From an uncultured Myxococcales bacterium (GTDB lineage Bacteria > Myxococcota_A > Bradymonadia > UBA7976 > UBA1532), in contig CAINDO010000561.1 in the NCBI GenBank assembly GCA_903847385.1, positions 10,328-74,327 on the forward strand: a stretch of 64,000 nt of DNA, given 5' to 3'. Shown piece after piece: positions 2,063-61,247 of this stretch; the stretch's first letter is position 1, and the number at the start of each line of letters is the position of its first letter. Under the pieces are notes generated by a model that searched no databases, was not told the origin of the DNA, and saw nothing but the letters and a program-made list of their open reading frames with translations. Both the position numbers and the translations under genes were made by a program.

Positions 2063-2063
2063 C

Positions 2064-5836: not shown

Positions 5837-5841
5837 CCGAC

Positions 5842-13928: not shown

Positions 13929-13967
13929 GGAGCCCTTTCTGTCGCCGCGCGGGGCGGCGGAATCGGT

Positions 13968-14909
<942 letters not shown>

Positions 14910-14999
14910 TCGACTCCTCAGACCCCGATGCGTGCGGCGCTGTTTCAGCCGGGCACGTCGCGATTGCATCCGCCCGCGGGCCGGCGCCAGGATGCCCCC

Positions 15000-15983: not shown

Positions 15984-16003
15984 CGCCCCGAGCGTTCAGG
16001 CGC

Positions 16004-17933: not shown

Positions 17934-17961
17934 CCGGACGTCCTCGTCGCCTTCCTACGCT

Positions 17962-18525: not shown

Positions 18526-18632
18526 GGGAGCCTCCTGCCTGCGGCTTACTACTTTATGGACCCCGGTCAGTCAACGATACACTCAAAATCCTCTGAGCAA
18601 GTATCGGCACGACGGCAGGAGATTTCGAGGGG

Positions 18633-20033: not shown

Positions 20034-20105
20034 CTGCGTTGTCCCTTACCTGTCTGACCTTCTACGCGATTCGACATTCCGCCGGGGGAAAGGTTCCCGT
20101 GCGGT

Positions 20106-20354
20106 TCAGAACGGTTCCTTCTCGACGCTCTGCAGAATCTCGGGCAGGAAACTCTTCTTCGGCTCGAGGCCTTTGAAGTTCACGTCGCCCTTCTGGAGGA
20201 TGTAGAAGGCCTCGGGCTTCTGAATCTGACCCTCGACCTTGAGGGCGTCGATCTGGATGACCTTGCCTTTCCCCTTGTCGCGCTTCTTCTCCTGCGCGGC
20301 GGCGGGGGTGGCGGCGATGATCAGGGCCAGACAGGCCAGGACGAAAGTCTTCAT
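20106..20354 (-). CDS. small secreted protein (GltF/NfsF-like position)
   Basis: 82 aa, signal peptide 'FVLACLALIIAATPAAA'. 4-bp overlap with the upstream TPR lipoprotein gene. Confidence 0.5.
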   Translation of the reverse strand: MKTFVLACLALIIAATPAAAQEKKRDKGKGKVIQIDALKVEGQIQKPEAFYILQKGDVNFKGLEPKKSFLPEILQSVEKEPF

Positions 20355-21616
20355 TTCTCTCCCCCATCGGCGGAAGCGGGCGCCGCTGCGGGCGCGGGCT
20401 TCGGGTCCTTGCGGGCGGCTTCGGCCTTCTTCTGCTCGACCACGATGCGCTTGTTGGCCTCGGCGATGTACTGATCGACGGGGTCGTTGGCGGCGGGTCG
20501 GCCGGGGGCCTGCTTGTAGCGCTGGAAAAAGTCGACGGCCTGCTGCAGGCGCGACAAGGGCTCGACGCCCGGGAGCTGGCCGTCCAGGTAGAGGATGCCC
20601 AGGTTGAACAGGACATCCCCCGAGTTCGGATTGAGCTCGAGCGCGCGCTTCATGGCAGCATCTGCATCGGCGTACTTCTGCTGGCCCTTGAGCGCGTTGC
20701 CCAGGTTCATCTGGGCCGCCAGGAACTGCGGGTGCCGGCTCAGCGACTGGCGGAACATGCCCTCGGCGCCGGCGTAGTCGCCGGCCTCGTGATAGACCAG
20801 CCCGAGATCGTTGTAGACCTCGGCGCTCGCGCCCCCGGGGAGCGCGACGGCTTTCTCCAGCTGCAGGCGGGCCTGGGGCTTCTCGTTGAGCGCGACGTAG
20901 CTGCGCGCCATCTTGGCGTAGGGCTCGGGATCGTTGGGATCGTTGGCCGAAGCGCTGGCGAGCACGGCGATGGCCAGCTCGTGTTTGCCCTGGCGCGCGT
21001 AACCGGCGCCGAGGACCTTCATGGCCTCGACGTTCTTCTCATCCGCCCGAAGGACGCCCGTCGCGTCGGCGATCGCGCCGGCGACGTCGTTGTTCGCCAA
21101 CTTGAGGCGCGCGACCGCGTTGCGCACGCCCGTGCTCTCCGGGGCCTTCTCCAGCCGCTCCTGCGCGAAGGACAACGCCGCGGCGGCGTCCCCCTTGCGG
21201 AGCATGATCTGGGCGATGGCGGTGACGGCGGGGCCGAACTCGGGGCGGGCGTCGAGGGCCTGCTTGTAGAAGCGACGCGCCTCGACGTCGTTGCCCTGCC
21301 GCTCGGCGAGGACACCGAGGTTGTACAGCGGCTCGGGCGCAGAGCTGTCGGTGGAGGCGGCGGACTCGTAGGCGCGGCGCGCGGCGTCCAGATTGCCGGC
21401 GGCGGCCTCGCGCTGACCCTGCTCGAGCTGGCCGGCGATCTCCGGGGAAACCGTCGCCTGGGGCGCGGCCTCGGGGATGTGCGTCGAGCCCGAGGAGTCG
21501 CCGGCGACGGGCGCAGCGCCTCCAGAGGCGGCGGTACCGGACTTGCCCTTGGGGCCACCGCCACAGGCGGACGTCAGGGTGAGCGCGACGAGCGCGATGG
21601 TCAGGTGGGTCTTCAC
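20351..21616 (-). CDS. TPR-repeat lipoprotein (GltE/AglT/NfsE-like)
   Basis: Lipobox 'LTLTSAC', then repeated TPR-like helices (Y/A/L/G/N periodicity). 4-bp overlaps on both sides. Confidence 0.75.
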   Translation of the reverse strand: MKTHLTIALVALTLTSACGGGPKGKSGTAASGGAAPVAGDSSGSTHIPEAAPQATVSPEIAGQLEQGQREAAAGNLDAARRAYESAASTDSSAPEPLYNLGVLAERQGNDVEARRFYKQALDARPEFGPAVTAIAQIMLRKGDAAAALSFAQERLEKAPESTGVRNAVARLKLANNDVAGAIADATGVLRADEKNVEAMKVLGAGYARQGKHELAIAVLASASANDPNDPEPYAKMARSYVALNEKPQARLQLEKAVALPGGASAEVYNDLGLVYHEAGDYAGAEGMFRQSLSRHPQFLAAQMNLGNALKGQQKYADADAAMKRALELNPNSGDVLFNLGILYLDGQLPGVEPLSRLQQAVDFFQRYKQAPGRPAANDPVDQYIAEANKRIVVEQKKAEAARKDPKPAPAAAPASADGGEK

Positions 21617-24600
21617 TTCTCACCCTCCTCGGCTTCGGCCGGCGCCGCGTCCGAGGGCGCGGGGGTGGGCGGCGGCGGAGGCGCGGTGAGGAGCCGGGCC
21701 GGGGTCATGTCCTCGCCGGAGAACACGCGCCGCTCCTCCTTGAAGAGCGGGTAGTCCGCCGGCTTGAACTTGTTCAGCGAGGTCAGGATTCGCTTCGTCC
21801 ACTCGTTCGTGACCTTGAACTCGCGGGCCTTGTCGTAGGCCGTGACGTAACGCTTGACCGCCTCGTCCTCGATCGGCAGCGCGATGTCCTCGAGCTGGGT
21901 CCGGTAGGCGTCCTGCTCCTCCTCGGAGAGCCCCGGGGGAATCGGAGCGTCGTACAGCGCCTGCGCGAAGACCTGGTACATGTGGCCGAGCCGGTAGAAC
22001 GCCGCGAGCGTCCACTCGAACGCCTTGTAGTCGATGACCTCGGCGTACTGGCGCTGCAGGTCCTTGATGCGGCCCTGCATGTCCTTGATGGTCTTGCCCT
22101 GGTTCTGGAGCGAGCCGGTGAGCTTGAGGGCCTCGTACTTCTGGAACTCGAGCTCGACGATCTTGAAGCGCGCCTTGGCCGGGTGGACCGCGATGGGCGT
22201 GCCGCCCTGGAGGCCACGGGCGTTGAACTCGTTGATGATGCGGTCCCAGGTCTGGCGCGCCGAGCGGCCGTTGCCCTGCTCCTCGTAGATGTCCGCCGAC
22301 CGCGAGAGGCCGGTGATGACCTTCTCGGCGTTCGCCCGATCCACGCCGTACTTCTTGATGAAGGTGTCGTAGATGCGCAGGGCGTTGCGGGTGTCCTTGA
22401 GCTTCTCGTAGTTCCGAGCCGCGCGGAAATAGGTCTCCGCAGCGTCGGGCTGGCCCGGGAACATGTCCGCGTACTTCTCGAAGTTCGCCGCGGCGCGCTG
22501 GTACTGCTGGGTCTCCTCCTGCAGTTCCGCCGCCTGGAGCAGCGACTCGGAGCGGTGCTCCGACGCCGGGTACTTCTCCATCAAGAGCAGGTGGCTGCTG
22601 ATGGCGCGGTCGTAGTCGAAGAACCGCTCGGAGTTCACCGCCACGCGGAAGAGCGCCTCGCTGGCGAACTCGCTCTGCGGGTACTCCTGGTAGATGCGCT
22701 GATAGGTGTTCGTCGCCGACTCGAAGCGCCGGACCTGCTCGAACGCCACGGCGGCGTTGTTCAAGGCCTTGTCGGCGAACTTGTTCTTGGCGTCCTTATC
22801 CACGAGCTCGACGTACTTGAGCGCGGCGGCCTCGTACTTCTTGTCGTTGAACAGGGCCTCGGCCTGCTTGAAAGCCGCGCCGGTCTCGAGCTTGCGGATC
22901 TGCTCCGCCAGGACACCCTGCTCCTCTTTGGAGCCGATGTTCGCGGCGCTGAGCTTCCCGGCCCAGAGCTTCATGTTGTCCCAGTCGTTCGCGGCGCGGT
23001 ACGTCTGAATGATGTTGTTCGCGGCGAAGTAGGCGACCTTCTCCTGCGGGTACTTCTCGACGACGAAGGAGAACCACTTCCGGGCCTCGTCGTAGTGTTT
23101 GTACTCGTAGAAGACCTCGCCGGCCTTGTAGGCCACGCGGGGCAGCTTGCCGGCGTCGGCCGGGTCCTTGAGGCCCTTCTCGACGTAGGCGACGCGAGCG
23201 TTCACGAGCTTCATGACCACCGGCGGGATCGGCTCCGGCTCGATGACCCGGATCGACTCGGTGCCATCGCCGACGGGTTTGTCCCCCGTGGCCTTGGCCG
23301 CCGTGCTCTCGATGGGCTGGTTGAGCAGCGACGGGCGTGACTCGATCTTGCCGCTGTCGATGTCCTGCTTGACCGTCGACTCGTTCGACAGGATCGCGCT
23401 GAAGCCGGCGAGTTCCTGGTACTTCGTGCCCAGGCTCGAGTCGCGCACGGCCTCGTACTGGGTGGCGGCCTCGCCGAACCGGAACGAGTAGAAAAGGCAC
23501 TCGGCGTAGAAGAAGCCGAGCTCGTAGGCGTTCTCGGAGGTCGGGTACTTGCGCAGGTAGTTGTCGTAGGCGACGGCGGCGAGTTTGTACTCCTTGATCG
23601 CCTCGTCCTCGGCCTCGACCTTGCCCGCCTTCGCTTCTTCTTTGAGGGCCTGCGCGCGCGTGTGGTGGTACTGGGCGGCGGTGATCAGCGCCCCCTCGAC
23701 CAGCTTCTCCGCGTTCCGGATGACCTCGGTGTTCGAGCGGTTCGCCTCGTGCCAGGCGGAGCCCTCGCCATAGCTGCGGGCCAGCGTGTCGCGCTCGGCG
23801 AAGGCGTCGTCGAAGCGACGCAGGCGCTCGTAGGCGACGATCACGTTCTGGCTGAGCGCCGGGTTCTCCGGGTTGTTCGGGAACTTCTTGATGAGGAACC
23901 GCGTGGCCTCGATGCTCTCCTCGTACTTCGAGTTGTCGAAGTAGATCTGAGCGATGCCCTTGAGGACCTCGACCTCGTAGGGCTTGTCGCCCGACAGGTA
24001 GCGCAACGCCCGGTTGAAGCCCGCGTCGTCGTCCGGCCGACCGTCGCCGTCCCAGTCCTCTTCCTGGAGCGAGATCGCCAGGTACTGGATGGCCTCGGCG
24101 CGGAGGTCCGAGCCCTTCGCCCCGGACTTGGCCGCCTGCTCGTCGCTGTACTCGACCAGCGACTTGAAGCGCTTGATGGCGTCGTCGTACTGGTCGTTGC
24201 GGTAGTAGGTCCAGGCGAGCTTGTACAAGGCCTTGTCGTAGAAGGGCGTGTCCTTGTACGCGAGGACCTTGGAGTAGGCGTCGATCGCCTTGGGCAGGTC
24301 GTTGTAGTCGAAGAAGTACTCACCGATGCGCAGCCACGCCTCGGGAACAAACTTGCTGTCCGGGTACTTCTCCACCAGCGTCGTGAACTGGTCCAGCGCC
24401 GGCTTGTCCTCGCCCATCTCCTTGAGGCAGTAGCCCTTCAGGTACATGGCGCCGTCGGCGTTGCGGTTGTCCGGCCAGCGCCCGAGGAGGCGGTCGAAGA
24501 GCGAGATCGTCGAGCGGTAGTCCTGGCGCGGCTCCGAGGGCGGCTCGGGCATCTCGCCGGCGTCGAACTTCTTCAGGTCGCCCTCGTACTGCTCGAGGGC

Positions 24601-25128
24601 CTCGAGGTAGCCGTCGTAGGCCTTCTCGAAGTGCAGCTCGGCGAGCCGGAACAAGGCGTCCGGCGTGTACTGCGGGTGGTCCGGGTAGCGGTTGAGGAAC
24701 TCCTCGAAGCGCAGGATGGCCTCTTCGCGGCGCTTGCGCTCCTCCTCGACGTACTTGGAGACCGCGGCGTCGTACTTCTGCTGCACCTCGACCTTCTTCA
24801 GGGCGAACTGCTGCTCGACGAGCTTGGCGACGTCCTTGCGGAAGTCGACGATCTCCTTCTCGAAGCTGGCCATCTCCTCGGCCAGTTCGATCATCTCGGG
24901 GGACACGCCCCCCTGCTCCGTTGCGGGGGCCGGGGCTGCCGCCACGGGGGCCGCAGAGGCGGGCGCGGAGGCTTCGGAGGCGGGTGCGGGGGCTTCCGAG
25001 GCCGGGGCCGCGGGGGCGGCATCCTGACCGTGGGCGTCCACGAGGGGCGTGGAGGTCAAGGCCGCCGCGAGCAGGAGCTGCTGGCGTCCGCGATGCCATG
25101 CGCGCCGTTTGAGGGTCCGCTCAGTCAC
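21613..25128 (-). CDS. large secreted TPR-repeat protein, 1171 aa (GltD/AgmU/NfsD-like)
   Basis: Signal peptide, Ala/Pro-rich linker, then >20 TPR-like repeats ('YPDHPQYTPDALFRLAE', 'YPDSKFVPEAWLRIGEYFF', ...). Size and architecture match the AgmU family. Confidence 0.8.
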   Translation of the reverse strand: MTERTLKRRAWHRGRQQLLLAAALTSTPLVDAHGQDAAPAAPASEAPAPASEASAPASAAPVAAAPAPATEQGGVSPEMIELAEEMASFEKEIVDFRKDVAKLVEQQFALKKVEVQQKYDAAVSKYVEEERKRREEAILRFEEFLNRYPDHPQYTPDALFRLAELHFEKAYDGYLEALEQYEGDLKKFDAGEMPEPPSEPRQDYRSTISLFDRLLGRWPDNRNADGAMYLKGYCLKEMGEDKPALDQFTTLVEKYPDSKFVPEAWLRIGEYFFDYNDLPKAIDAYSKVLAYKDTPFYDKALYKLAWTYYRNDQYDDAIKRFKSLVEYSDEQAAKSGAKGSDLRAEAIQYLAISLQEEDWDGDGRPDDDAGFNRALRYLSGDKPYEVEVLKGIAQIYFDNSKYEESIEATRFLIKKFPNNPENPALSQNVIVAYERLRRFDDAFAERDTLARSYGEGSAWHEANRSNTEVIRNAEKLVEGALITAAQYHHTRAQALKEEAKAGKVEAEDEAIKEYKLAAVAYDNYLRKYPTSENAYELGFFYAECLFYSFRFGEAATQYEAVRDSSLGTKYQELAGFSAILSNESTVKQDIDSGKIESRPSLLNQPIESTAAKATGDKPVGDGTESIRVIEPEPIPPVVMKLVNARVAYVEKGLKDPADAGKLPRVAYKAGEVFYEYKHYDEARKWFSFVVEKYPQEKVAYFAANNIIQTYRAANDWDNMKLWAGKLSAANIGSKEEQGVLAEQIRKLETGAAFKQAEALFNDKKYEAAALKYVELVDKDAKNKFADKALNNAAVAFEQVRRFESATNTYQRIYQEYPQSEFASEALFRVAVNSERFFDYDRAISSHLLLMEKYPASEHRSESLLQAAELQEETQQYQRAAANFEKYADMFPGQPDAAETYFRAARNYEKLKDTRNALRIYDTFIKKYGVDRANAEKVITGLSRSADIYEEQGNGRSARQTWDRIINEFNARGLQGGTPIAVHPAKARFKIVELEFQKYEALKLTGSLQNQGKTIKDMQGRIKDLQRQYAEVIDYKAFEWTLAAFYRLGHMYQVFAQALYDAPIPPGLSEEEQDAYRTQLEDIALPIEDEAVKRYVTAYDKAREFKVTNEWTKRILTSLNKFKPADYPLFKEERRVFSGEDMTPARLLTAPPPPPTPAPSDAAPAEAEEGEK

Positions 25129-27391
25129 CGGTGGCCTCTTTCAACTCGCGCTCCATGACCTCGAGCTCTTCGCGCTCCTTGGCCCGGGTGTCGGCAATCA
25201 GCTTCGACTGGTCCTGTTTCTGCTTCCAGGCGATGTCCACGTTGCCGACGTCCGCCTCGAGCACGACGGAGGCGATGCGGTCGAGCACCGCGCGGAAGCT
25301 GCGGGCCGCGATCGTGCCGCCGAGCGACTCGGTCTGCCCCTGATAGGTCACGAGTTCACCGCCGTAAGTCCCGATGTTCTGCCGCTCGCGGTCCACCTGA
25401 TGCTTGAGCTCGGCGACCTTCTCATCGACCACCGTCGCGGTCTTCTGAAGGAAGGCGACCGCCCGCGCGTCGAGCTGCGAGATCCGGCTGCGTTCGGAGG
25501 CGGCGACCGGCGCGCCGTGCCCGGCCAGATAGGCCTCCTCGGCGTCCAGGGCCGCGGCGAGCGACTGGCGGATCTTCTCGTCCTCGTTCGAGGCCGAATC
25601 GTTCACGCCGACGCTGAGGCGCTGCATCTCGATGCCACGCGCCATCTTCTCGTACTCGCCCCGGAGGGCGACGGTCTCGGCGAGCTCCCGGGCGACCTGG
25701 TCGTAGACGGCCTTCTCTCGGCCCGTCGCCCCCTTGCTGGCGACCGTGTCCTCGACGTACTTGGAGATCGCGGCCAGCTGGGCCTCGAGTCCACGAATCT
25801 GCACGTTGAGCGCGAAGCCGGTCTTGTCGAGCTCGCGGATCTGGGCGTCGACCTTCTTGTCGCGCTGCTGGAGCGCCTGGGCCGTGCGGGGGATCTCGGC
25901 GTAGCGGGACTCCCAGCCGCGGCGGGCCTCGCGCAGGCGGGCGTACTCCGGATCGCTGCGGAGCGCCGGCGTCGCCGTCTTCTCGTTGAGCTGGACGCGC
26001 GCGGCGGCGAGCGTCGCGCGCGCCTCGAGCCCCTGCAGGACGCCCTCGAGCAGGTTCGGGAACACCTCGACGCGGTTGGGCGCGTTGAGGAGCGCGTCCA
26101 GCCGCTCGATGGTGCGCTGCGCCTCGTCGACGTCCCGCTTCTCCTGGGCGAGGTCTCCGACGAGCACGACGGCCCGGTCGGCCTCCATGTCCGGGCCGGC
26201 GAACTCGGCGGCCTTGGCCGGCAGGAACGTGGTGAGATCGAAGTTGGCCAGGTTGCGGCCGATGACCCGGTTGAAGTGCCCCTCGAGATCACCCTTCGCG
26301 CCGTCGACGACCTTCTGCATGTCGTCGCGGATGGGGTTGAACTCGTAGAGGACCTGATTGAAGGAGCTCTGGGCTTCTTCGTAGCGGCCGAGCATCAGGA
26401 GGAGCCGGCCCTGCAAGAGTCGCGAGTCCGCGCCGTGGAGAACGTCGGGCTGCGCGATCAGGAGGATCTCGAGCTTCCGGACGGAGGCCTCGTAGTCCTT
26501 CTCTTTGATGGAGATCCAGACGCTCTCGTAGACGCCCTTGTCGTAGTGCTTCGAGGCCTTGTCGATGGACTCGTAAGCCTCGACCGCCTTCACCAGCTCG
26601 CCGCGCTCGTACAGAATGCGCGCGACGGCCAGGCGGGCGAGGTCGCCGATCTCGGCCTCCTCGGCCTCGTCCGCCTGCCCCGCGGGGTCGGCGGCGACGG
26701 AGATCGCGTGTTCGAAGGCGCTCGTGGCCTCCGCGAGTTTGTTCTGCCGAATGAACGCGACACCGGCGAAGTACAGCGAGCGCCGGTGGAGCGCGTGGCT
26801 CTCCGGGATGCGCTGGAACCAGGCCGTCGCCTCGGCGAAGTTCGACTGCCGATAGTGGAACTTGCCGATCGCGTAGTAGAGCGTCGGCTCCTCGCCCTGG
26901 TTGGCCAGCTCACCGGCGCGGGCCAGGTAGGTCTGCGCAGCGGCGGCGTCGTGCGTCGCCAGCGCGATCTCGAGCAACCGCGCCACGGACTGCTGCCGCT
27001 GGTTCGGCGTCCCGATGCTCGTCACCTCGGCGTAGTACTGCGAGGCCGGGCGATAGTTCCGCAGGGCGAAGAGGGACTCGGCGAGATAGAAAAGCGCGTC
27101 CCGATAGGCCGGGTGCGAGCGGTTCTTCGAGTCGTCGACCACGTCGAGCAGGGCCATGGCCGCCCGGTCGTAGTCCTTCATGATGAAGAGAAGCTGACCG
27201 TCGTTCAGCCGCGCGGTGAGCCGATTGCTCCGCTCCATCATCTCGGGCACGAGGTATCGCCGCTCGAGGTTCGAGAGCGACTCGTCCACCTGCTGCAGGT
27301 CCACCCGAGCCCCGCCGAGGTCGGCAGCGAACGCGGGAACACCGATCAAGAACGCGCACGCCTGGAGCGCGCGCCTGCTCCCGCGCTTCAT
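25121..27391 (-). CDS. secreted TPR + coiled-coil protein, 756 aa (possible GltC/NfsC-like)
   Basis: Signal peptide 'ACAFLIGVPAFAA'. N-terminal TPR-like repeats, C-terminal coiled coil. 8-bp overlap with the downstream gene. Confidence 0.7.
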   Translation of the reverse strand: MKRGSRRALQACAFLIGVPAFAADLGGARVDLQQVDESLSNLERRYLVPEMMERSNRLTARLNDGQLLFIMKDYDRAAMALLDVVDDSKNRSHPAYRDALFYLAESLFALRNYRPASQYYAEVTSIGTPNQRQQSVARLLEIALATHDAAAAQTYLARAGELANQGEEPTLYYAIGKFHYRQSNFAEATAWFQRIPESHALHRRSLYFAGVAFIRQNKLAEATSAFEHAISVAADPAGQADEAEEAEIGDLARLAVARILYERGELVKAVEAYESIDKASKHYDKGVYESVWISIKEKDYEASVRKLEILLIAQPDVLHGADSRLLQGRLLLMLGRYEEAQSSFNQVLYEFNPIRDDMQKVVDGAKGDLEGHFNRVIGRNLANFDLTTFLPAKAAEFAGPDMEADRAVVLVGDLAQEKRDVDEAQRTIERLDALLNAPNRVEVFPNLLEGVLQGLEARATLAAARVQLNEKTATPALRSDPEYARLREARRGWESRYAEIPRTAQALQQRDKKVDAQIRELDKTGFALNVQIRGLEAQLAAISKYVEDTVASKGATGREKAVYDQVARELAETVALRGEYEKMARGIEMQRLSVGVNDSASNEDEKIRQSLAAALDAEEAYLAGHGAPVAASERSRISQLDARAVAFLQKTATVVDEKVAELKHQVDRERQNIGTYGGELVTYQGQTESLGGTIAARSFRAVLDRIASVVLEADVGNVDIAWKQKQDQSKLIADTRAKEREELEVMERELKEATGD

Positions 27392-27394
27392 GCC

Positions 27395-28207
27395 TTACCT
27401 GTCTTCCTCGGCCTTGCCGTCCGCTGCGGCAGTGGGCGCGCCGCGCTTGACGTCCAGAAGTTCGGTGTCGAAGCGGATGGCCGGGCGGTCCTTGAGGTCC
27501 GTCGTCATGCCACCCTTTTCGTAGCCAACGACCTTCAGGCGCGCCAGCTTGCCCTCCTCGGCGCGGAAGGTATAGGAGCTGCGAAGCGTGAACACGTAGC
27601 CGTTCAGGTACGAGAAGATGCCGTAGCCGTTGCCACGGTAGACCATCACGACGGAGACGAGGTGGTTGCCGGGCACGATCGGACCGTTGAAGATCTCGAT
27701 CTCCTCCTGGTCGTCCAGCTTGCCCTCGCCCTCGGCGCGGCTGAAGATTTGCGAGCCGTCGAGGCTGTAGCTGACCTTCTCGAGCCGGAAGCTGGACCCC
27801 ATCTCGTTGCGGTGGACGATCTGGGCCTCGGAGCCGGCGATGCTGCTCGCCAGGACGGTCTCCTTGAGGATGGCCAGCCTGGACTTGGAGCGGAAGATCT
27901 TCTCTTTGAGCTCGTTGACGTGGGTCTCGAGCTCCTGAACCTTGAGCTTGTAAGCGTCGTCGCCGTTGCCGGCTGCCTGCGCCGGGGCCTCGGTGGGCTT
28001 GGCCACCTCGACCTCGGCGGGCGCGCCGGGCGGCGCAGGTGTCGCCGCTGCGGCGGGCGCTGCGCTCGCCGGGGCCGGGGCGGCTGACGGCGCGAGGCTC
28101 GCCGGCGCCGTGGCCGGGGAGGGCGCACTCGCAGGCGCCCCCTGACCGACGGCCCAGCCCGGTGCCGCAAGGAGGATCGTCGCGAAAAGGAGAATGAGGC
28201 TTCGCAT
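27395..28207 (-). CDS. secreted hypothetical protein (first gene of the operon)
   Basis: ATG 28207 preceded by GGGAG at -7. Signal peptide 'MRSLILLFATILLAAPGWAVGQ', Ala/Pro-rich linker, short coiled coil, beta-rich C-terminal domain. The track's upstream alternate start is rejected. Confidence 0.6.
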   Translation of the reverse strand: MRSLILLFATILLAAPGWAVGQGAPASAPSPATAPASLAPSAAPAPASAAPAAAATPAPPGAPAEVEVAKPTEAPAQAAGNGDDAYKLKVQELETHVNELKEKIFRSKSRLAILKETVLASSIAGSEAQIVHRNEMGSSFRLEKVSYSLDGSQIFSRAEGEGKLDDQEEIEIFNGPIVPGNHLVSVVMVYRGNGYGIFSYLNGYVFTLRSSYTFRAEEGKLARLKVVGYEKGGMTTDLKDRPAIRFDTELLDVKRGAPTAAADGKAEEDR

Positions 28208-28249
28208 TCGAGGACTCCCTACGGCGCAGACACCCGGGGTGGTTCGTCG

Positions 28250-28278
28250 ACCTAACACAGCCCCTTTCGGTATGTCAA
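28250..28278 (-). promoter_or_regulatory. candidate sigma70-type promoter for the glt-like/OPX operon
   Basis: Minus-strand TTGACA (28278-28273), 17-nt spacer, TTAGGT (28255-28250). ~40 nt upstream of the GGGAG SD and ATG 28207. Confidence 0.3.
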
Positions 28279-28324
28279 CCAGGAGAGTTTACTGCGACGA
28301 CCTGCGCTGCTTGAAAAAGTTCAA

Positions 28325-34015: not shown

Positions 34016-34327
34016 TCAGAGCACGCGAGGCACGCGGAACGCCGCGTCCTCGTGATCGGGGGCGTTCGCCACGTGCTCGCCGGGCGCCAGCGCGACGCGC
34101 AGACCCTCGGGACGCAAACGGGTCGCTTCGCCCGAGAGCGTCGTGGGGGGCACCCCGGTCGTGTCGAGCCCGGTCAGCTGCTCGATGTGCCCGAGGATCG
34201 CGCCGAGATCGCGCCGCAGGCGCTCGGCGGCCTCGGGTGCGATCTCCAGACGGGCGAGCCGGGCGATGTGCGCGACCGTGGCGGGTTCGAGGTCGTGTTC
34301 GGGCGAGGTGCTCACCGGTCTCTCCAC
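34016..34327 (-). CDS. gatC: Asp/Glu-tRNA(Asn/Gln) amidotransferase subunit C
   Basis: 'VAHIARLARLEI...' GatC motif. GTG start (34327, or 34315). Confidence 0.85.
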   Translation of the reverse strand: MERPVSTSPEHDLEPATVAHIARLARLEIAPEAAERLRRDLGAILGHIEQLTGLDTTGVPPTTLSGEATRLRPEGLRVALAPGEHVANAPDHEDAAFRVPRVL

Positions 34328-34363: not shown

Positions 34364-36559
34364 TTACTGCAACCGCTCCAGCCGCCGGCGCGCCATGTCG
34401 GCCCGGCGACCGTTGGGGTGTGCCTCGAGGAAGGTCTTGTAGGCCCCCACGGCGTCGCTCGTCTTGCCGGCCTTCTCGTAGGCCTCGGCGACGCCGTAGA
34501 GCGCATCGGAGTAGCGCGGGCTGCGGTCGAGGGCCTGCTGAAACTGCGCCAGCGCCTCGGCGTACCGGTGCTGGTCGACGTAACACCAGCCGAGGTTGGC
34601 GAAGGGCTCCGGGCTGCGCGGCTTCGCCTGGCTGGCCTTCTCGAAGAAGCGCGCGGCGACCTCCGGCTTGCCGGCCTCGAGGTTCCGGGCGCCCCGGAGC
34701 ATCAGGCCGTCGAAGTCGTCCCCGGCGTGGATGGGCGTGGGCTCCTCTGCGACTCGCACGGCGCCGGGCGCCGCGGTCGGCGCTGCGGACACCGGCGCCC
34801 GGACGGCGGCAGCGGTGACCGGCGCAGGGGCCGCGGTGACCGGCGCAGGGGCCGCGGTGACCGGCGCAGGGGCCGCGGTCACGGGCGCGGAAGGTGCCAG
34901 GCTCGCCGCCACGGGCGGGGCCGTGCCGCTCGTCAGGCGTGTCTTCAGGTCGATGCCCTGCACATGGCTGGGCGTGGCTCGAAGGAGCTCCATCGCGACC
35001 TGCAGCGCTTCGTCCCGGCGCCCGGACTTCTCGAGCGCGAGGCCGCGGATCAGCAGGACCCGCGGCACCGACCGCGCCTCGGGCGGGAGCGCGGCCAGGC
35101 GGTCCGAGACGGCGCCGGGGTCGTCCGAGCCCTCGATCATCGCCCGGAGAAAGACATACTCCGGCCGAGACGAGGCCTTGGGCGCCGCCGCATCCAGGAA
35201 GTTGCGAACGCTCACGCGCTCGTCGCGCAGGCGGAGGCTGTCCGCCCAGGCGAGCTCGATGTCCGGCAGGTCCGGGGCGTGCACGCGGGCGGTGCCCAAC
35301 AGGTCGTTGACCTTGGCCAGCATCGCGCCCGGGGCATCTCCGCCGAGCATCCGGTGCTCGGCCCGGGCCAGCAGCACCCGGGCCTTGCCCACGAGCGCCC
35401 GCGCCGCGAGGACGCGGTCCGAGGGCGGCTCGCCGAGGGCGGCCAGGATGGCGTCGTACTCGGGGATGGCCAGGTCGAGCTCGGAGTCGGCGTCCGTCCG
35501 GACCCGTGCGTCGGCGGCGTCGAGCCGCGTCGGCAGGTCGAGCACGGCCGTGGTCGCCGGGGCCGGCGCGCGGTCGGGGCCGGCGGAGAGCGGCGCGGGC
35601 CTGGACAGGGCGGAGCGGCCCTTGTCGGTGTTCAGGTGCTCGAACGCGCCGTAGGCGACGGCGAAGAGCGCGCCCGTGACGCCGACGCCGATCACGAACC
35701 CGCGAGCCGTGTTGCCCCGCGTCGCCGGTGCGGCGCCGCCGCCGAGGTCGAAGCCCGGCACCGAGGGCTCCTGCCGCAGGGGGGGGCGCGGCGCGGGCGT
35801 GCGCATCACCGTGACCTGGGGTCCCGGCTCGGAGACCGGGATCTGCACGCGGCGCATCGCGGCCGTCTCGGTGATGACCGGCGCGGGGGTCGGCGCCTGC
35901 GGCGCGACCTGGATCTGGGCCATCGATTGGGTCCCCATCAGCGGCGCGCTGACGGGCGTGGGCGCCTCGCCGGGCCCTTCCAGCCGGAACTGGCCGGTGT
36001 CCAGCAGGTCGTCCCGGCCGCGGGGTGGCGCGGGCGGGGCGGGCGGCGCGAGGTTCGGTCGGACCGGCGCCATCTGGCTCGAGGTCTGGGTCGGCGGCGC
36101 GGGCGGCTCCGGCGTGGAGGCGGGCGGGTTGTTTCGCAGCGCCTCGCCCTCGACCACGAGGAAGAAGCTGGAGAGCTCCACGATGGAGCCGAGGGGCTTC
36201 CAGCTCTCACCGGTCTTCGAGATCTCGTCGTCCCGGGAGACCTTGCGCTCGAGGATCCACTTCTGGAGCGTGGAGAGGTCCTTGAACTCGAGGACGTCCG
36301 TGCTGCGCTCCTTGCGGATCATCCAGCCGCGGGTGCGGGCCGGCGCACCCGCCCGAGGCAGTTGCGCCATCTCGGTCGTCGTCGTCGGTCGGGAGGGACG
36401 CGCCTCGGCGATCACGGGCCGCTCGTCCACGGTCACGCTGTGACGCGTCACGCGGAAGAGGAACCCGCAATGGGTGCACTTCACGGCGATGCCCGCGTCC
36501 GTGACCTTGGCGTCATCGAATTCGTATTCGGTGCCGCACTGCTCGCATCTGACGTCCAT
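34364..36559 (-). CDS. zinc-ribbon + GYF(DUF4339-like) domain bitopic membrane protein with periplasmic linker repeats and C-terminal TPR domain
   Basis: 'MDVRCEQCGTEYEF...VKCTHCGFLF' MJ0042-type CxxC...CxxC zinc ribbon. GYF-like 'GWMIRKERSTDVLEFKDLSTLQKWILERKVSRDDEISKTGESWKPLGSIVEL'. Pro/Ala-rich linker, TM 'GFVIGVGVTGALFAVAYGAF', (APAPVTA)x4 repeat, C-terminal TPRs ('NLGWCYVDQHRYAEALAQFQQAL...'). Confidence 0.7.
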   Translation of the reverse strand: MDVRCEQCGTEYEFDDAKVTDAGIAVKCTHCGFLFRVTRHSVTVDERPVIAEARPSRPTTTTEMAQLPRAGAPARTRGWMIRKERSTDVLEFKDLSTLQKWILERKVSRDDEISKTGESWKPLGSIVELSSFFLVVEGEALRNNPPASTPEPPAPPTQTSSQMAPVRPNLAPPAPPAPPRGRDDLLDTGQFRLEGPGEAPTPVSAPLMGTQSMAQIQVAPQAPTPAPVITETAAMRRVQIPVSEPGPQVTVMRTPAPRPPLRQEPSVPGFDLGGGAAPATRGNTARGFVIGVGVTGALFAVAYGAFEHLNTDKGRSALSRPAPLSAGPDRAPAPATTAVLDLPTRLDAADARVRTDADSELDLAIPEYDAILAALGEPPSDRVLAARALVGKARVLLARAEHRMLGGDAPGAMLAKVNDLLGTARVHAPDLPDIELAWADSLRLRDERVSVRNFLDAAAPKASSRPEYVFLRAMIEGSDDPGAVSDRLAALPPEARSVPRVLLIRGLALEKSGRRDEALQVAMELLRATPSHVQGIDLKTRLTSGTAPPVAASLAPSAPVTAAPAPVTAAPAPVTAAPAPVTAAAVRAPVSAAPTAAPGAVRVAEEPTPIHAGDDFDGLMLRGARNLEAGKPEVAARFFEKASQAKPRSPEPFANLGWCYVDQHRYAEALAQFQQALDRSPRYSDALYGVAEAYEKAGKTSDAVGAYKTFLEAHPNGRRADMARRRLERLQ
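34814..34876. repeat. perfect 21-bp tandem repeat x3 (plus a degenerate 4th unit) inside the CDS; encodes (APAPVTA)n
   Basis: gtgaccggcgcaggggccgcg repeated at 34814, 34835 and 34856, followed by a diverged copy. Confidence 0.8.
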
Positions 36560-37825
36560 TCACTCCCCGCCTGACCGCGCTCTCGTTCGCCGGTACTCCG
36601 CCAAGGCGGTCCGCGCCTCGCGATCCCGCCCGCCCAGTTTCGAAAGCGTCAACGCAAGATAACGAAAGACGCGCGGGTCGTCTTTTTCGCTGCGTGCGGC
36701 TTGTTGAAGGAGTTGTTCGGCGGCCGTGTAACGTTCGGCCTCGAAGGCCTGCAGAGCGGCCTGCAGCGCGGGTCCGGGGGGGGTCGCATCGATCGGGACC
36801 GCGGCCGCGGCCACGACGGGTGCGGGGGTCGACGGCGTGACCGCGGTCAGCACCTGCGCGACGACGAGTGCGACGCCGACCGTCCCGCCGGCGAGCACGA
36901 GCGCGAAGCCCGTGCCGAAGGTGCGCCCTGCGGGGGCCGGGCGAGCCGCCGTGCGTGCCCCGGGGGCGCCCGGAGAGGCCGCAGCGACGGGACTTCGCGC
37001 GGCCGGCGCGCGGGACTCGGGCCGTTGAGCCGCCGGGGCCCGCGAGCCTTGCGGCTTGCGACCGGCCAGTTCCAGCTCGAGCTTGGGCGCGGCGCCCTCG
37101 TTCGACGAGAATCCGCCGGCCGCAGGGCGCATCCCGAGGCGGGTCATCACCTCGGGGTAGTCCTCGACCGTCCGGAAGGCGCCACCGCCGCGGGCGATGC
37201 GGATGCCGTCGAAGGAGTCCTTGTTCTGCAGCCACTGGATCACGGACTCGATGGAGACCATGTCGTAGACGGTGCCGGCGGCGTTGCGCACGCGCCAGCC
37301 CTCGCCCGCGTTCCCACCGGACTCCTTGGCCCGACCGCCGGCCATCGATCCGCCGGCCATCGACCCGCCGACCGCCTCGAGCGAGAGCTCGTCCGGTGTG
37401 GCTTCGTCGAGGTTGCCGAGATCGGCGGCGGGGCCGGCGTCTGCGCCAGGGAACGTGAACGCCGGGACGAAACCGCCGCGACCGGCCGTCGTGACGGGGG
37501 CCGGGGGCGCCGAAGGGATCCCGCCGCCGTCGAGGATGGCCGAGAGGTCGAAGGCGTCGGCGTCGTTCCCCGCCGGCATGTCGCCCAGGCTGGAGTTGTG
37601 TCCCCCGGGCGAGGCGTCGCCGCGCGCCGGTGGCGGGCCGAGGTCGCCGAGCTCGATGGACCCCGCGGCCCGGGGCTCCAGCAGGCCTCGACCGGCGCGA
37701 GGGGCCGGCCGTTCGGGACCGACGGCGTGACCGCACGCCCGGCAGACGGCATCGCCGGCGCCGAGCAACCCACCACACTCAGGACAACGACGACTCATGT
37801 GAAGGCCGACGTTGCCACAGGACAC
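36560..37825 (-). CDS. zinc-ribbon + GYF(DUF4339-like) domain bitopic membrane protein (paralogue of the downstream gene)
   Basis: 'RRCPECGGLLGAGDAVCRACGH' zinc ribbon. GYF-like 'GWRVRNAAGTVYDMVSIESVIQWLQNKDSFDGIRIARGGGAFRTVEDYPEV'. TM 'FGTGFALVLAGGTVGVALVVAQVL'. Short C-terminal helical domain. Stop abuts the start of the next gene; alternative start at 37798. Confidence 0.65.
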   Translation of the reverse strand: MSCGNVGLHMSRRCPECGGLLGAGDAVCRACGHAVGPERPAPRAGRGLLEPRAAGSIELGDLGPPPARGDASPGGHNSSLGDMPAGNDADAFDLSAILDGGGIPSAPPAPVTTAGRGGFVPAFTFPGADAGPAADLGNLDEATPDELSLEAVGGSMAGGSMAGGRAKESGGNAGEGWRVRNAAGTVYDMVSIESVIQWLQNKDSFDGIRIARGGGAFRTVEDYPEVMTRLGMRPAAGGFSSNEGAAPKLELELAGRKPQGSRAPAAQRPESRAPAARSPVAAASPGAPGARTAARPAPAGRTFGTGFALVLAGGTVGVALVVAQVLTAVTPSTPAPVVAAAAVPIDATPPGPALQAALQAFEAERYTAAEQLLQQAARSEKDDPRVFRYLALTLSKLGGRDREARTALAEYRRTRARSGGE

Positions 37826-37851: not shown

Positions 37852-40089
37852 TCAGGTGTCCCAGTGGTCACCCGGGTCTTCGTAGACGGAGAGGAACCGC
37901 GCCACGATGGTGCGGCGCCCGACCCCCGGAAACTCCACGACGGCCGTCGCGCCGTGCCCGCGCCCCACGGACACGACCTTGCCGCGGCCGAGCTCGCCGT
38001 GCCAGACGGAGACGCCGGCCCGCAGGCCCCCGGCGTCGCCGTCGCCGTCGGCATCGTCCCAGGTGGCGTCCCGGTAGAGGTCGTCGTCGGGACGGGGGAG
38101 CTGCTTTCCGAAGCGCGGCCGGAGCGTCTGCGCGGGCGCGGGCGTGTGGTCGACGTGCGGCTCGACGTCGGCGGACGGAATCTCGGCCAGGAACCGGCTC
38201 GGGGGGTTGCGACGCGTCTCGGCGAAGGTCCGCCGCTCCCGGCACCAGGTCAGGGCGAGTCGGCGCCGCGCTCTTGTGAGGGCGACGTAGCAGAGGCGGC
38301 GCTCCTCCTCGATGGCGTCGGGATCGTCCTCGCCGCGACGGTGCGGGAAGACGCCGTCCTCCAGCCCGACCACGAAACAGACCGGAAACTCCAGCCCCTT
38401 GGCGGCGTGGATCGTCAGCAGCGCGATGGCGCCGCGGCTCGGATCGTGGTCGTCCGCGTCGGAGACGAGCTTGACGGACTCGAGCCAGTCGCCCAGCCCG
38501 CCGGCGGGGTTCTCCTGCCGCCAGGACTGCAGCGCCACGAGCAGGCGCTCCACGTTCTCGGCGCGGGCGCGGGCATCCTCGTTGCGGGCGCCCTCGTGGC
38601 GGAGGCGCTCGCGGAGCGGTTCCAGCAGCGTCGCGGCGATGCGCTCGGCGGGTGCGCCCACCCCGACCGCTGCCCTGGCCTGGGCCAGCTCGGTCAAGAA
38701 CCCGCGCAGGCCCTCGACGGCCGCCCCCCGAAGCGCAACGAGCCCGCGGCCGGAGGCGGTGTGCAACGACACGCCTGCGGCCTGGGCGGCGGCGGCGAGC
38801 TTGTCCACGCTCGTTTCCCCGACGCCGCGCGGCGGGGCGCCCAGGGCGCGCCGGAAGGCGACGTCGTCGTCCGGGTTGACCACGAGGCGCAGCCAGGCCA
38901 CGGCGTCGCGGACCTCGGCGCGCTCGTAGAACGACCGGCCCCTCAGCGTGACGCTCGGCAGGCGCGCGCCCCGAAGCGCCTCCTCGAGGTCGAGCGAGAG
39001 GGCGTTGGTGCGCAGCAGAATCGCGAAGTCCGCCGGCGTGTGGCCCTCGTCCCGGCAGAGCGTCTGGATGCGCTGCGCCACCCAGCGCGCCTCGTCCCGG
39101 GGCGTGGCGAAGGAGCGGACCTCGAGCCGGTCCCCCGCCCCGTCCTCCGTGAAGAGGGTCTTGCCGAGTCGGCCCCGGTTCTGGGCGATCACGCCGTTGG
39201 CCGCGCCCAGGATGTGACCCGTGCTGCGGTAGTTGCGCTCCAGGCGCACCGTCGTCGCGCCGGGCCAAGTCTGCGCGAAGTTCAGGATGTTGCCCACGTC
39301 CGCGCCGCGCCAGCCGTAGATCGACTGGTCGTCGTCCCCGACGACGCAGAGATTCGATGTGGCTTCGGCGGGCGCGAGCTGCTGCAACCACGAGAGCTGC
39401 GCCGCGTTGGTGTCCTGGAACTCGTCCACGAGCACCCACGGCCAGCGCGCCCGGACGGACGCGGCGAGCGCGGGGTCCGCGGCCAGCAGCTCCGCCGGTC
39501 GGATGATCAGGTCGCCGAAGTCGAAGGCGTTGGCCCGGGCGAGCATCTCCTCGTAGCGCGCGCCGATGTCCGCCCCGCCGGCCGAGAGGATCTCCGGCGG
39601 CAGATCCGCGGCCGCAAGGGGCCGTCCGGCGTTCTTGGCCCGGTCGAGCGCATCCCGCACCTCGCGGGCCTCGCTCGCGCGCTGTCCCAGGCCGCTCGCC
39701 TCGAACACGCGCTTGAGCAGCGCCACCTGATCGTCGTCATCGTAGAGCGTGAAGTCCGGCGTTCGCCCGAGCCGCGCGGCGTGGCGACGCAGAAAACGGG
39801 CGCCGAAGCTGTGGAACGTCGACACCGTCAGGTCGCCGATGTTCGCGACGCCGGGCATCAAGTCCGCGCACCGCGACCGCATCTCGGCGGCCGCCTTGTT
39901 CGTGAAGGTCAGCGCCAGGATGTGGCCGGGGGGCACGCCGTCGCGAACGAGCCGCGCGATGCGGAACGTGACGACGCGCGTCTTCCCGCTCCCCGCGCCG
40001 GCGAGCACCAGCAGCGGGCCGGCGCCGTGCGACACGGCCGCGCGCTGCGCGGGGTTCAGGGCGGCGATCTGGCGGTCGAGGTCGCTCAA
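37852..40089 (-). CDS. ATP-dependent DNA helicase, UvrD/PcrA/Rep superfamily 1
   Basis: Walker A 'GAGSGKTRV', 'LTFTNKAAAEM', 'VDEFQDTN', 'YRST'; C-terminal tudor-like region. 745 aa. Confidence 0.9.
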   Translation of the reverse strand: MSDLDRQIAALNPAQRAAVSHGAGPLLVLAGAGSGKTRVVTFRIARLVRDGVPPGHILALTFTNKAAAEMRSRCADLMPGVANIGDLTVSTFHSFGARFLRRHAARLGRTPDFTLYDDDDQVALLKRVFEASGLGQRASEAREVRDALDRAKNAGRPLAAADLPPEILSAGGADIGARYEEMLARANAFDFGDLIIRPAELLAADPALAASVRARWPWVLVDEFQDTNAAQLSWLQQLAPAEATSNLCVVGDDDQSIYGWRGADVGNILNFAQTWPGATTVRLERNYRSTGHILGAANGVIAQNRGRLGKTLFTEDGAGDRLEVRSFATPRDEARWVAQRIQTLCRDEGHTPADFAILLRTNALSLDLEEALRGARLPSVTLRGRSFYERAEVRDAVAWLRLVVNPDDDVAFRRALGAPPRGVGETSVDKLAAAAQAAGVSLHTASGRGLVALRGAAVEGLRGFLTELAQARAAVGVGAPAERIAATLLEPLRERLRHEGARNEDARARAENVERLLVALQSWRQENPAGGLGDWLESVKLVSDADDHDPSRGAIALLTIHAAKGLEFPVCFVVGLEDGVFPHRRGEDDPDAIEEERRLCYVALTRARRRLALTWCRERRTFAETRRNPPSRFLAEIPSADVEPHVDHTPAPAQTLRPRFGKQLPRPDDDLYRDATWDDADGDGDAGGLRAGVSVWHGELGRGKVVSVGRGHGATAVVEFPGVGRRTIVARFLSVYEDPGDHWDT

Positions 40090-44491: not shown

Positions 44492-44592
44492 GGCATCACG
44501 GCACGATTCTCGCATGTCGTTCCTCCTGAGTTTCTGCTGAACCCCGCCGACCGGCGACTACAGGAATCCAGGAATCAAAGGAGCGCATCGCG

Positions 44593-45345
44593 ATGGGAAC
44601 CGAGTTCATTCGTGCCCTGGAACACCACCGCGCCCAGGCCCAGTCGGGCCCGCCTGCGGTCACGCCGCCCGCCCGCCTGCTGATGTCGTGGATCCACCAC
44701 GACAACATGCTCGAGGGCGAGATGTTCACGCCGCAGGAGATTCAGCAGGCGCTCATCGGCGCCGACGACGATCTCGACCGGTACCTGCACCCCCTCATGG
44801 ATCGGATCCGGCGCTACGCCGAGACCATCATGACCGTGTGGTCGCACGCCGACGGCGGCGCCCGGGCCGTGAACCTGGACAACCTGAAGCTCATCAACCG
44901 GATGCTGAACCCGGACCCGACGGATCGCGGTGGTCTGTATCGGCAGACGTCCCCTGTGCATCGGGACTACTACCAGCGCATCTGCCCGCCGGACAAGGTC
45001 ACCTACCACCTGCGCAAGCTCTTCGAGCAGGTGGAGACCGAGTGCGACTCCGCCTGTGATCCCGTCGCGTTCGCCGCCGAGATCCATCACAAGCTGATGG
45101 GCATCTACCCGTTCCGGAAGCAGCCCGGCACGACGGCGCGGCTCTTCACCAACCTCCTGCTCATGTCCCGCGGTTACCCGCCGGCCATCATCCCGGGCAA
45201 CCTGCGCAGCGAGTACTACGAAGCGCTCTGTAGCAATGAACCGGCCGACCTCGCCCGGATCTTCCGCATCAGCGTGCAGGGTTTCATGCGCGACCAGGGC
45301 GGGCGTGTCCTTCGCCCCGTGTCGGTTCAGGTCGGCCTGACCTGA
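44593..45345 (+). CDS. Fic/DOC (Fido)-family protein with non-canonical active-site motif
   Basis: Fido-fold helices. Motif region 'IHHKLMGIYPFRKQPGTTARLFTNLL' aligns to HPFx[DE]GNGRxxR but reads YPFRKQPGTTAR. Confidence 0.7.
   Translation: MGTEFIRALEHHRAQAQSGPPAVTPPARLLMSWIHHDNMLEGEMFTPQEIQQALIGADDDLDRYLHPLMDRIRRYAETIMTVWSHADGGARAVNLDNLKLINRMLNPDPTDRGGLYRQTSPVHRDYYQRICPPDKVTYHLRKLFEQVETECDSACDPVAFAAEIHHKLMGIYPFRKQPGTTARLFTNLLLMSRGYPPAIIPGNLRSEYYEALCSNEPADLARIFRISVQGFMRDQGGRVLRPVSVQVGLT

Positions 45346-51757: not shown

Positions 51758-51761
<4 letters not shown>
51327..51761 (-). CDS. hypothetical protein, possible degenerate receiver-like (pseudo-REC) domain
   Basis: 144 aa. ATGA overlap with the pilin gene stop. 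Alternating beta/alpha hydrophobic pattern ('TWLIAAEAA', '[19 protein letters not shown]', '[10 protein letters not shown]') reminiscent of the CheY fold, without the canonical DD...D...T...K residues. Confidence 0.4.
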
Positions 51762-52342
<581 letters not shown>

Positions 52343-52400
52343 TGCGTCACTCCTTGCCGCCCCCGTTCAGCGGCACCGATTTCATTGCACGACCGGAGAC

Positions 52401-55385: not shown

Positions 55386-55460
55386 CACCCGGCGCAGCGC
55401 CTCCTTATATAGCGGCTACGCCGCAAAGCGCTCCCCCGCTCCGTCAGCACAGAGAGGCCC

Positions 55461-57158: not shown

Positions 57159-57165
57159 GTCCTCC

Positions 57166-58248: not shown

Positions 58249-58264
58249 GCGAGATCCCCGACCG

Positions 58265-59923: not shown

Positions 59924-60026
59924 ACGGCCGAATTCCGTCCCCCCCCAGGCCGCAGGTTGCGGTCCCCGATGCATGGGCATAACATCCCACGGGTTCGGTC
60001 GGGATCGGTCGGTGGAGGAGGAGCGC

Positions 60027-61235
<1,209 letters not shown>

Positions 61236-61247
61236 CGGCCGCCCAGC

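Follow-up and report, generated by a model that had tools for sequence, protein, structure and literature searches.

Tandem genes for two predicted membrane proteins with zinc-ribbon and GYF-fold modules, between a UvrD-type helicase gene and gatC in an uncultured Myxococcales bacterium

The window analyzed here is a 64,000-nucleotide stretch (G+C content, ~70%) of contig CAINDO010000561.1 (positions 10,328 to 74,327) from an uncultured Myxococcales bacterium. On its minus strand lie two abutting genes, which we call P1 and P2; each encodes a protein with an N-terminal zinc ribbon, a GYF-fold domain, and a single predicted transmembrane (TM) helix. As the first-pass annotation of this DNA had stated, the two follow one another without a gap and sit between gatC and a gene for a PcrA/UvrD-type helicase. 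The P2 stop (TGA) runs straight into the P1 start (ATG), with a gap of 0 bp; uvrD and P2 are 53 bp apart, and P1 and gatC are 36 bp apart. The same-strand neighbors are gatC, gatA, gatB, and mtnA downstream and the helicase gene, glmS, and a glmU-like gene upstream. Third-position G+C content was 0.93 for P1 and 0.83 for the P2 open reading frame (ORF), against ~0.73 overall; both genes were therefore taken to be coding. A plus-strand ORF that overlaps P1 (33836 to 36574; 912 amino acids) failed the third-position G+C filter and was treated as a shadow frame.

The P2 ORF, as called mechanically, opens at a GTG codon. The true start is most likely the ATG at position 37798 (MSRRCPECGG), because every full-length ortholog in the alignment begins there (MS..C..C). 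In P2 orthologs, four Cys residues were conserved wherever the upstream sequence had been included. The public gene call for P2 (P0122; 100% identical over the part that it covers) begins at an internal Met and therefore loses the zinc ribbon; the ribbon is likewise cut off in the ortholog calls P0123, P0127, P0130, and P0133, which also start at internal Met residues (324 to 339 amino acids for the five calls, with P0122 at 339).

P1 consists, from the N terminus, of an MJ0042-type zinc ribbon, a short linker, a GYF-fold domain, a proline-rich segment, the TM helix, a helical region with tetratricopeptide repeats (TPRs), a run of PAPVTAA repeats, and C-terminal TPRs. The ribbon scored above cutoff with Zn_ribbon_4 (50.2 bits; cutoff, 30.3) and with TIGR02098 MJ0042_CXXC (28.6 bits; cutoff, 20.9). 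Its best match among solved structures in the PDB was ZitP (2nb9; E value, 0.0049), and the zinc ribbon of GltJ, the focal-adhesion switch protein of Myxococcus xanthus also called AgmX (PMC11135422, PMC11761067; PDB 7zok for the ribbon and 7z3c for the GYF domain), was matched at an E value of 0.02. Ten ribbon positions (M1, D2, V3, C5, C8, E11, Y12, C28, C31, and F35) were invariant in 28 diverse P1 relatives. The linker that follows is unconserved and ~40 residues long (8 to 86 in the family; median, 30), and the GYF-fold domain after it is the most conserved part of the family, at 37 to 97% identity in ~120 relatives.

Pfam GYF_2 (PF14237) was not reported for full-length P1 at an E value of ≤1, and the isolated domain reached 12.7 bits (E value, 0.12), under the gathering cutoff of 25.8 bits. 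GYF_2 was nonetheless the sole family to recur for the domain segments of P1 relatives, of which 41 of 53 matched it at an E value of ≤10 (best, 2.2e−5). The segment beyond the domain is 23% Pro in P1, and this richness is family-wide (median length from GYF domain to TM helix, 126 residues; 21.6% Pro). On the far side of the helix, TPR families matched residues 499 to 533 and 614 to 727, all over cutoff (TPR_2, 60.7 bits; TPR_19, 51.5 bits; TPR_16, 45.7 bits), with three clear repeats at the C terminus and a further TPR-like helical region at residues ~340 to 535. The PAPVTAA units sit in the predicted periplasmic spacer that separates the two TPR regions.

P2, the more divergent of the two proteins, has a short four-Cys ribbon, a long linker with conserved motifs, a GYF-fold domain, a TM helix, and a short TPR-like tail. 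A word-indexed search gave 18 homologs, and orthologs were aligned as 17 sequences, 13 of them full-length. The four ribbon Cys residues were kept in 13 of 13 full-length orthologs. No Pfam zinc-ribbon family matched the P2 ribbon above threshold (Zn_ribbon_3 E value, 1.5e−3), and it fell short of Zn_ribbon_4/MJ0042; in a scan of P2 and 46 relatives, Zn_ribbon_4 matched 13 of the 47 sequences. Distant P2-like partners carry a full MJ0042-type ribbon (Zn_ribbon_4, 51 to 54 bits), and by this comparison the P2 ribbon in the window is a shortened form.

The P2 linker is rich in Gly, Ala, and Pro, and the stretch from ribbon to GYF domain has a median length of 122 residues in the family. Twelve of its columns were invariant across all 17 sequences (D81, A82, F83, D84, L85, S86, I88, and L89; P112, F114, F116, and G118). 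In both families the linkers between ribbon and GYF domain are of low complexity and variable length, and the in-frame repeats in the P1 spacer and the P2 linker are likely to be length-variable spacers. The P2 tail matched TPR_19 at 21.6 bits, under the cutoff of 25, and the same family matched 24 of the 47 sequences scanned; many residues between P343 and R403 were invariant in the ortholog alignment.

GYF_2 matched neither P2 nor any relative scanned. In the AlphaFold2 model, the order of secondary-structure elements in the P2 domain equals that in the P1 domain, and in a Foldseek search with the P2 domain model ranks 1 to 9 were all GYF domains (probability, 0.82 to 0.99; E value, 0.012 to 0.14), among them GIGYF1/2, an Arabidopsis GYF protein, Smy2, and GltJ (7z3c). 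When the N-terminal halves and the domain profiles of the two proteins were searched against PDB sequences, meaningful matches were returned for the P1 ribbon alone; P2 profile matches to designed helical repeats were discarded as compositional noise. The first-pass annotation had assigned a zinc ribbon and a GYF-like domain to both proteins and TPRs to the larger one only. The module stands in both, by the P1 ribbon scores, the invariant P2 cysteines, and the folds, with the P2 ribbon remaining below threshold; the TPRs of P1 stand as well, but P2 also has a short TPR-like unit. The GYF_2 similarity expected at the sequence level was below threshold in P1 and absent in P2, and structure comparison supported the GYF fold.

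Pairwise, P1 and P2 were not significantly similar (BLASTP; best E value, 0.09), and close paralogy was rejected on that basis; the shared module was visible to profile-profile comparison alone. With hhalign, the two domain families aligned at a probability of 94.7% (E value, 6e−8), rising to 98.9% (E value, 1.8e−17; 74 columns) with a wider P2 alignment, and the full-length family profiles were collinear across ribbon and domain (98.7%; E value, 3.7e−16; 122 columns). The gene lying upstream of the P1 homolog in more distant genomes encodes a ribbon, linker, domain, TM helix, and short TPR part, as P2 does. Because the profiles are collinear and the order of parts recurs in these distant partners, P1 and P2 are, by profile comparison, old and distant tandem paralogs; the earlier description of the genes as tandem paralogs thus holds for the homologous zinc ribbon-GYF module and not for any pairwise similarity.

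Both proteins have one hydrophobic segment and no signal peptide. Topology was gauged by counting Lys plus Arg over 15 residues on either side of the helix and averaging over each family. The means were 3.4 before and 1.9 after for P1 (126 proteins) and 2.5 before and 0.9 after for P2 (70 proteins). The flanking charges of the P2 protein in the window agree (3 before, 0 after), and those of its P1 are ambiguous (2 before, 3 after). Because the family charge bias puts the N terminus inside, the zinc ribbon-GYF modules are predicted to be cytoplasmic and the TPR parts periplasmic. A single TM helix with a cytoplasmic N-terminal module, as first annotated, is thus borne out as a trend across the families.

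P1 is a widespread Myxococcota family, and P2 is its partner in part of the phylum. A word-indexed search gave 181 P1 homologs, named only "zinc-ribbon domain-containing protein"; those with taxon labels were all myxobacterial (Myxococcota, Myxococcales, Myxococcaceae, Kofleriaceae, and Sandaracinus). In a set of 1.84 billion proteins, the P2 domain profile matched only 54 cluster representatives. Species representatives were also scanned (one genome per GTDB species), which yielded 405 loci with P1 relatives, and the best 80 were examined. A myxobacterial or deltaproteobacterial label was borne by 77 of these 80; the other three were an unlabeled "bacterium" metagenome-assembled genome (MAG), a Thermoanaerobaculia MAG, and a "Deming_bin." The closest P1 relative among them (69% identity) was labeled Bradymonadia, a class of Myxococcota. 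A P2-like gene lay directly upstream of the P1 homolog in 26/80 loci and was kept even at distant loci, where P1 identity was 26 to 29%. The helicase gene was upstream in 20/80, and gatA/gatB lay downstream of the P1 homolog in 38/80, including loci labeled Myxococcaceae, Archangiaceae, and Anaeromyxobacteraceae. Coordinates within the window are collected in Table 1.

Table 1. Positions of the paired genes, their predicted parts, and neighboring genes in the window
Feature	Position	Strand	Residues or remark
P1 gene	34364..36559	minus	731 amino acids
P1 zinc ribbon	36452..36559	minus	Residues 1-36; C5, C8, C28, C31 (CxxC-x19-CxxC)
P1 GYF-fold domain	36152..36328	minus	Residues 78-136
P1 proline-rich segment, predicted cytoplasmic	35705..36142	minus	Residues 140-285
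P1 TM helix, predicted	35639..35701	minus	Residues 287-307; Kyte-Doolittle maximum 1.95
P1 21-bp tandem repeat	34808..34888	minus	3.9 copies; PAPVTAA units; Tandem Repeats Finder, 95% matches
P1 C-terminal TPRs	34367..34720	minus	Residues 614-731
P2 gene	36560..37798	minus	412 amino acids from the ATG
P2 ORF as called mechanically	36560..37825	minus	GTG start at 37825
P2 zinc ribbon	37721..37798	minus	Residues 1-26; C5-x2-C8-x10-C19-x2-C22
P2 linker motifs	37445..37558	minus	DAFDLSAIL (residues 81-89), FVPAFTFPG (residues 110-118)
P2 15-bp repeat	37335-37370		2.4 copies; GGSMA; in frame, in predicted cytoplasmic linker
P2 GYF-fold domain	37127..37300	minus	Residues 167-224 (WRVRN...RLGMR)
P2 TM helix, predicted	36842..36916	minus	Residues ~295-319; Kyte-Doolittle maximum 2.22
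P2 TPR-like tail, predicted extracytoplasmic	36584..36772	minus	Residues 343-405
gatC	34016-34327	minus	Downstream of P1
PcrA/UvrD-type helicase gene	37852-40089	minus	Upstream of P2
GltC-like gene	25121-27394	minus	Below NCBIfam equivalog cutoff
GltD-like gene	21613-25140	minus	Below NCBIfam equivalog cutoff
GltE-like gene	20351-21619	minus	Below NCBIfam equivalog cutoff
GltG-like gene	18633-20033	minus	Below cutoff; AgmX/PglI tail (NF033768), E value 1.8e−30

The window also holds envelope-related gene groups. A Glt/Nfs-like cluster (16004 to 28288, minus strand) adjoins genes for polysaccharide export and synthesis: a Wza-like gene (16004 to 16714), sugar epimerase and dehydrogenase genes (12603 to 15995), a Wzc-like tyrosine kinase gene (10396 to 12894), and Wzy-like, glycosyltransferase, and asparagine synthase genes (1824 to 7764). 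Within the cluster, positions 16626 to 17933 encode a 435-amino-acid protein that looks outer-membrane-like by eye, and two small genes had no assignment. We take the placement of a Glt-type machine beside an export system to recall the Nfs/Exo spore-coat pairing of Myxococcus. Type IV pilus genes occupy 51758 to 52366 and 55413 to 62978; they encode a pilin-like protein that has a methylation motif at its N terminus, PilB-like (T2SSE plus MshEN), PilT-like, TPR, and PilC-like (T2SSF) proteins, and a histidine kinase resembling PilS. A plus-strand gene for a Fic/DOC family protein (44530 to 45345; E value, 4.5e−9) adjoins a class IV aminotransferase gene and lies between the glmU-like gene and the pilus genes.

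With a probability of roughly 0.55, we read P1 and P2 as inner-membrane adaptors, each crossing the membrane once, that connect cytoplasm and periplasm. If GltJ is a guide, the zinc ribbon-GYF modules in the cytoplasm would serve as adaptors or switches that bind other proteins: the GYF domain would contact a segment of its partner that may be rich in proline, and different partners would attach to the ribbon and linker. Periplasmic proteins would be scaffolded by the TPR parts, and the pair would in this way couple a cytoplasmic cue to an envelope assembly. That the genes abut and keep a constant order suggests joint action of the two proteins, with a division of labor that would be asymmetric. 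P2 is the candidate switch element, because its long linker between ribbon and GYF domain carries two invariant motifs and is GltJ-like in this respect; P1 would bring in its long stretch rich in proline together with a large TPR scaffold. GYF domains bind ligands of this proline-rich type, and we infer that a GYF domain perhaps docks on the stretch.

Several points weigh against this reading. The periplasmic placement of the TPRs rests on a rule of thumb from hydrophobicity and charge, and joint action is putative, being drawn from gene adjacency and order. A comparison of both domain families with a single GltJ-type GYF sequence (hhalign) gave E values of 0.26 and 0.007 at probabilities below 6%; because this is no significant signal, specific kinship to the GYF domain of GltJ is not claimed. 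At 28 of the 80 loci, gatCAB was present and a P2-like gene absent, and since many lineages have P1 and lack P2, P1 does not depend on P2. Literature searches found no paper on either family.

The adaptor reading has to be set against others. The pair had been proposed as a part or regulator of the nearby Glt-like machine, and as such it could be an accessory that supplies the zinc ribbon-GYF module of GltJ in trans. There is a precedent in GltJ itself, and the local cluster has GltC-, GltD-, GltE-, and GltG-like genes (18633 to 27394), of which the GltG-like protein has the AgmX/PglI tail and neither zinc ribbon nor GYF domain, and no GltJ-like protein. The "Glt-like C-G homologues" noted earlier at 6 kb are thus present, although their scores lie below cutoff and their distance from P1 is ~7 kb. 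The gene order is also kept in the closest lineage (glmS-uvrD-P2-P1-[gatCAB]-mtnA-obg-x-gltC-gltD), and in three related MAGs (L008, L010, and L013) that have no gatCAB before mtnA, the pair lies ~4 to 5.7 kb from the gltC-like gene; gatCAB is accordingly variable in position even among close relatives. However, the pair is separated from the cluster by gatC, gatA, gatB, mtnA, obg, and one gene without assignment (27395 to 28288), and among the 80 loci the proximity does not extend beyond the closest lineage. Genes like gltC or gltD were within the fetched flanks of 9/80 loci, all in the closest lineage (L001 to L014); most of the 38 loci at which gatA/gatB follow P1 had no glt-like gene within 10 kb; and none appeared in the 5- to 10-kb downstream flank of distant loci that keep the pair (L012, L017, L027, L028, L031, L035, L038, and L052), in a tblastn search (E value, 1e−5) whose divergent TPR queries may miss distant relatives. 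Nor do P1 and P2 have the TonB-C-like tail that is the modeled GltD contact of GltJ and GltG, and P1 occurs also in Myxococcaceae-type genomes, the Myxococcaceae including Myxococcus xanthus, which has a GltJ of its own. Nothing specific ties the pair to the Glt-like machine; the link to the nearby cluster is weak, and we consider membership in that machine unlikely.

We hold it improbable that the pair serves, like Caulobacter ZitP, as a polar-landmark adaptor or one associated with type IV pili, even though ZitP gave the best solved-structure match to the P1 ribbon and a pilB-pilT-pilC-pilS cluster lies at 55.4 to 63 kb in the window. The ZitP ribbon attaches to a polar hub in the cytoplasm, while the part of the protein in the periplasm acts on the biogenesis of pili. 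The ribbons of ZitP and GltJ are similar (PMC11135422). The P1 TPR region had sub-threshold matches to PilW (E value, 8e−9) and Tgl, but it matched PrsT, MamA, SctY, YbgF, BamD, and LapB alike, all far below cutoff, so these matches are generic. Family scans of P1 and P2 reported no ZitP-type periplasmic domain, and the pilus genes are 18 kb off; the genes in the interval are unrelated, and linkage was not seen to be conserved. The YbgF, BamD, and LapB matches could instead point to a general role in the envelope (peptidoglycan or outer membrane), like that of the periplasmic TPR proteins CpoB/YbgF, BamD, and LapB. Such a role would suit the conservation of P1 across classes of the phylum in the same context, a housekeeping array of glmU, glmS, uvrD, gatCAB, and obg in which glmS and glmU make UDP-GlcNAc, a cell-wall precursor. 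It is nevertheless a doubtful explanation, since the TPR matches are nonspecific, zinc ribbon-GYF modules have so far had no link to envelope biogenesis, and the synteny with housekeeping genes may be historical; a pcrA...gatCAB neighborhood is presumably also found in Bacillus.

A bolder extension of the adaptor reading, to which we give little credence, is that P2 and P1 together make up a heteromeric switch across the envelope, one that predates GltJ and is found more widely in Myxococcota. The P2 linker motifs would then bind an MglA-type small GTPase or the regulator of such a GTPase in competition with a ribbon, a GYF domain would dock on the proline-rich segment of P1, and the periplasmic TPR array of P1 would organize an envelope assembly. 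Were this so, the pair would be a core coupler of polarity to the envelope, and the GltJ switch would be a specialized offshoot. The authors of the GltJ work predict that zinc ribbon-GYF modules in general act as switches, with other partners (PMC11135422), and P1 and P2 offer a second concrete system in which to test how general the GltJ logic is, namely, that ribbon and GTPase are alternative ligands of the linker, that the GYF domain has a proline-rich partner, and that the signal reaches a periplasmic scaffold. The practical value lies in a list of candidates with domain boundaries, not in a new principle.

Among known systems, GltJ is the only characterized bacterial zinc ribbon-GYF protein that our literature searches found. 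It has a ribbon (residues 1 to 42), a 95-residue linker, a GYF domain (138 to 222), and a TM helix (385 to 405), followed in the periplasm by a disordered stretch and a TonB-C-like domain (584 to 674) modeled onto GltD (PMC11135422, PMC11761067). A linker motif (L86 to T107) binds either the ribbon or MglA-GTP, and GltJ's GYF domain binds a proline-rich sequence of AglZ (PMC11135422); the ribbon, once freed, helps recruit MglB (PMC11135422, PMC11761067). The module had been cited in the first-pass annotation as binding MglA-GTP and AglZ; this is right for the GYF domain and AglZ, whereas MglA-GTP is bound by the linker and not by the ribbon. No AglZ-like gene was noted within the 64-kb window. 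P1 and P2 share with GltJ the cytoplasmic zinc ribbon-GYF design, so that the N-terminal module is GltJ-like in layout. They do not score as GltJ equivalogs (NCBIfam NF033761; cutoff, 450), P1 reaching 20.9 bits (E value, 1.6e−4; best stretch, residues 3 to 74) and P2 giving no match, nor do they detectably resemble its GYF domain in sequence. Neither AgmX/PglI (NF033768) nor the TonB_C families matched either protein; where GltJ ends in a TonB-C-like, AgmX/PglI-type domain, P1 and P2 have predicted periplasmic TPRs. The GltJ gene neighbors gltI, whereas P1 and P2 are two such genes in tandem beside uvrD and gatCAB, and the P1 linker differs too, being short and unconserved, unlike that of P2, which is long with invariant motifs.

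A search with a padded 41-residue ribbon query gave five short fragments, one of which led to a locus (L081, 5001 to 6047; ENA contig_89823) where apparent frameshifts split a GltJ-like gene into three or more called ORFs, which hold the ribbon, the linker, and a piece positive for GYF_2; the GYF piece matched PDB 7z3c at an E value of 7e−33, which confirmed the 7z3c sequence. A faint likeness of 'EDEIGAVFDQVL' in this frameshifted gene to 'DADAFDLSAIL' in P2 was not used, the L081 linker being unreliable.

ZitP of Caulobacter crescentus is, as P1 is predicted to be, a membrane protein with a cytoplasmic N-terminal MJ0042-type ribbon, and P1 and P2 differ from it by their GYF domain and TPRs. 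We take ZitP to have no GYF domain and a periplasmic domain of the DUF3426 type. Its ribbon binds the polar organizer PopZ, and its similarity to the GltJ ribbon has been noted (PMC11135422). Eukaryotic GYF domains (CD2BP2, GIGYF1/2, and Smy2) have the same small strand-strand-helix-strand-strand fold and were among the top structural matches for both the P1 and P2 models. Their ligand specificity is not transferable, because sequence identity is 11 to 22% and because, in bacteria, the G, Y, and F signature is missing from nearly all GYF domains and the GltJ domain binds through a different surface, a sheet-based one (PMC11135422).

The closest fit is with the class of proteins described by Attia et al. 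in 2024 (PMC11135422). In that survey, ~44% of bacterial GYF proteins had an adjacent zinc ribbon, N-terminal ribbons occurred mainly in myxobacteria and planctomycetes, and zinc ribbon-GYF proteins were prevalent, always with a variable linker, usually with a membrane-associated module next, and fused to regions that are transmembrane or extracellular. A membrane protein bearing this module is therefore no peculiarity of GltJ. Outside Myxococcales these proteins show no correlation with MglA-MglB or AglZ, and they have been proposed as versatile switches with variable partners (PMC11135422). P1 and P2 have all the parts of the class (a ribbon, an adjacent GYF fold, a variable linker, and a membrane module), with GYF-like domains too divergent for GYF_2 and an operon partner that is itself a second zinc ribbon-GYF protein. 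Because such proteins have already been called prevalent, P1 and P2 are uncharacterized members of a kind already described.

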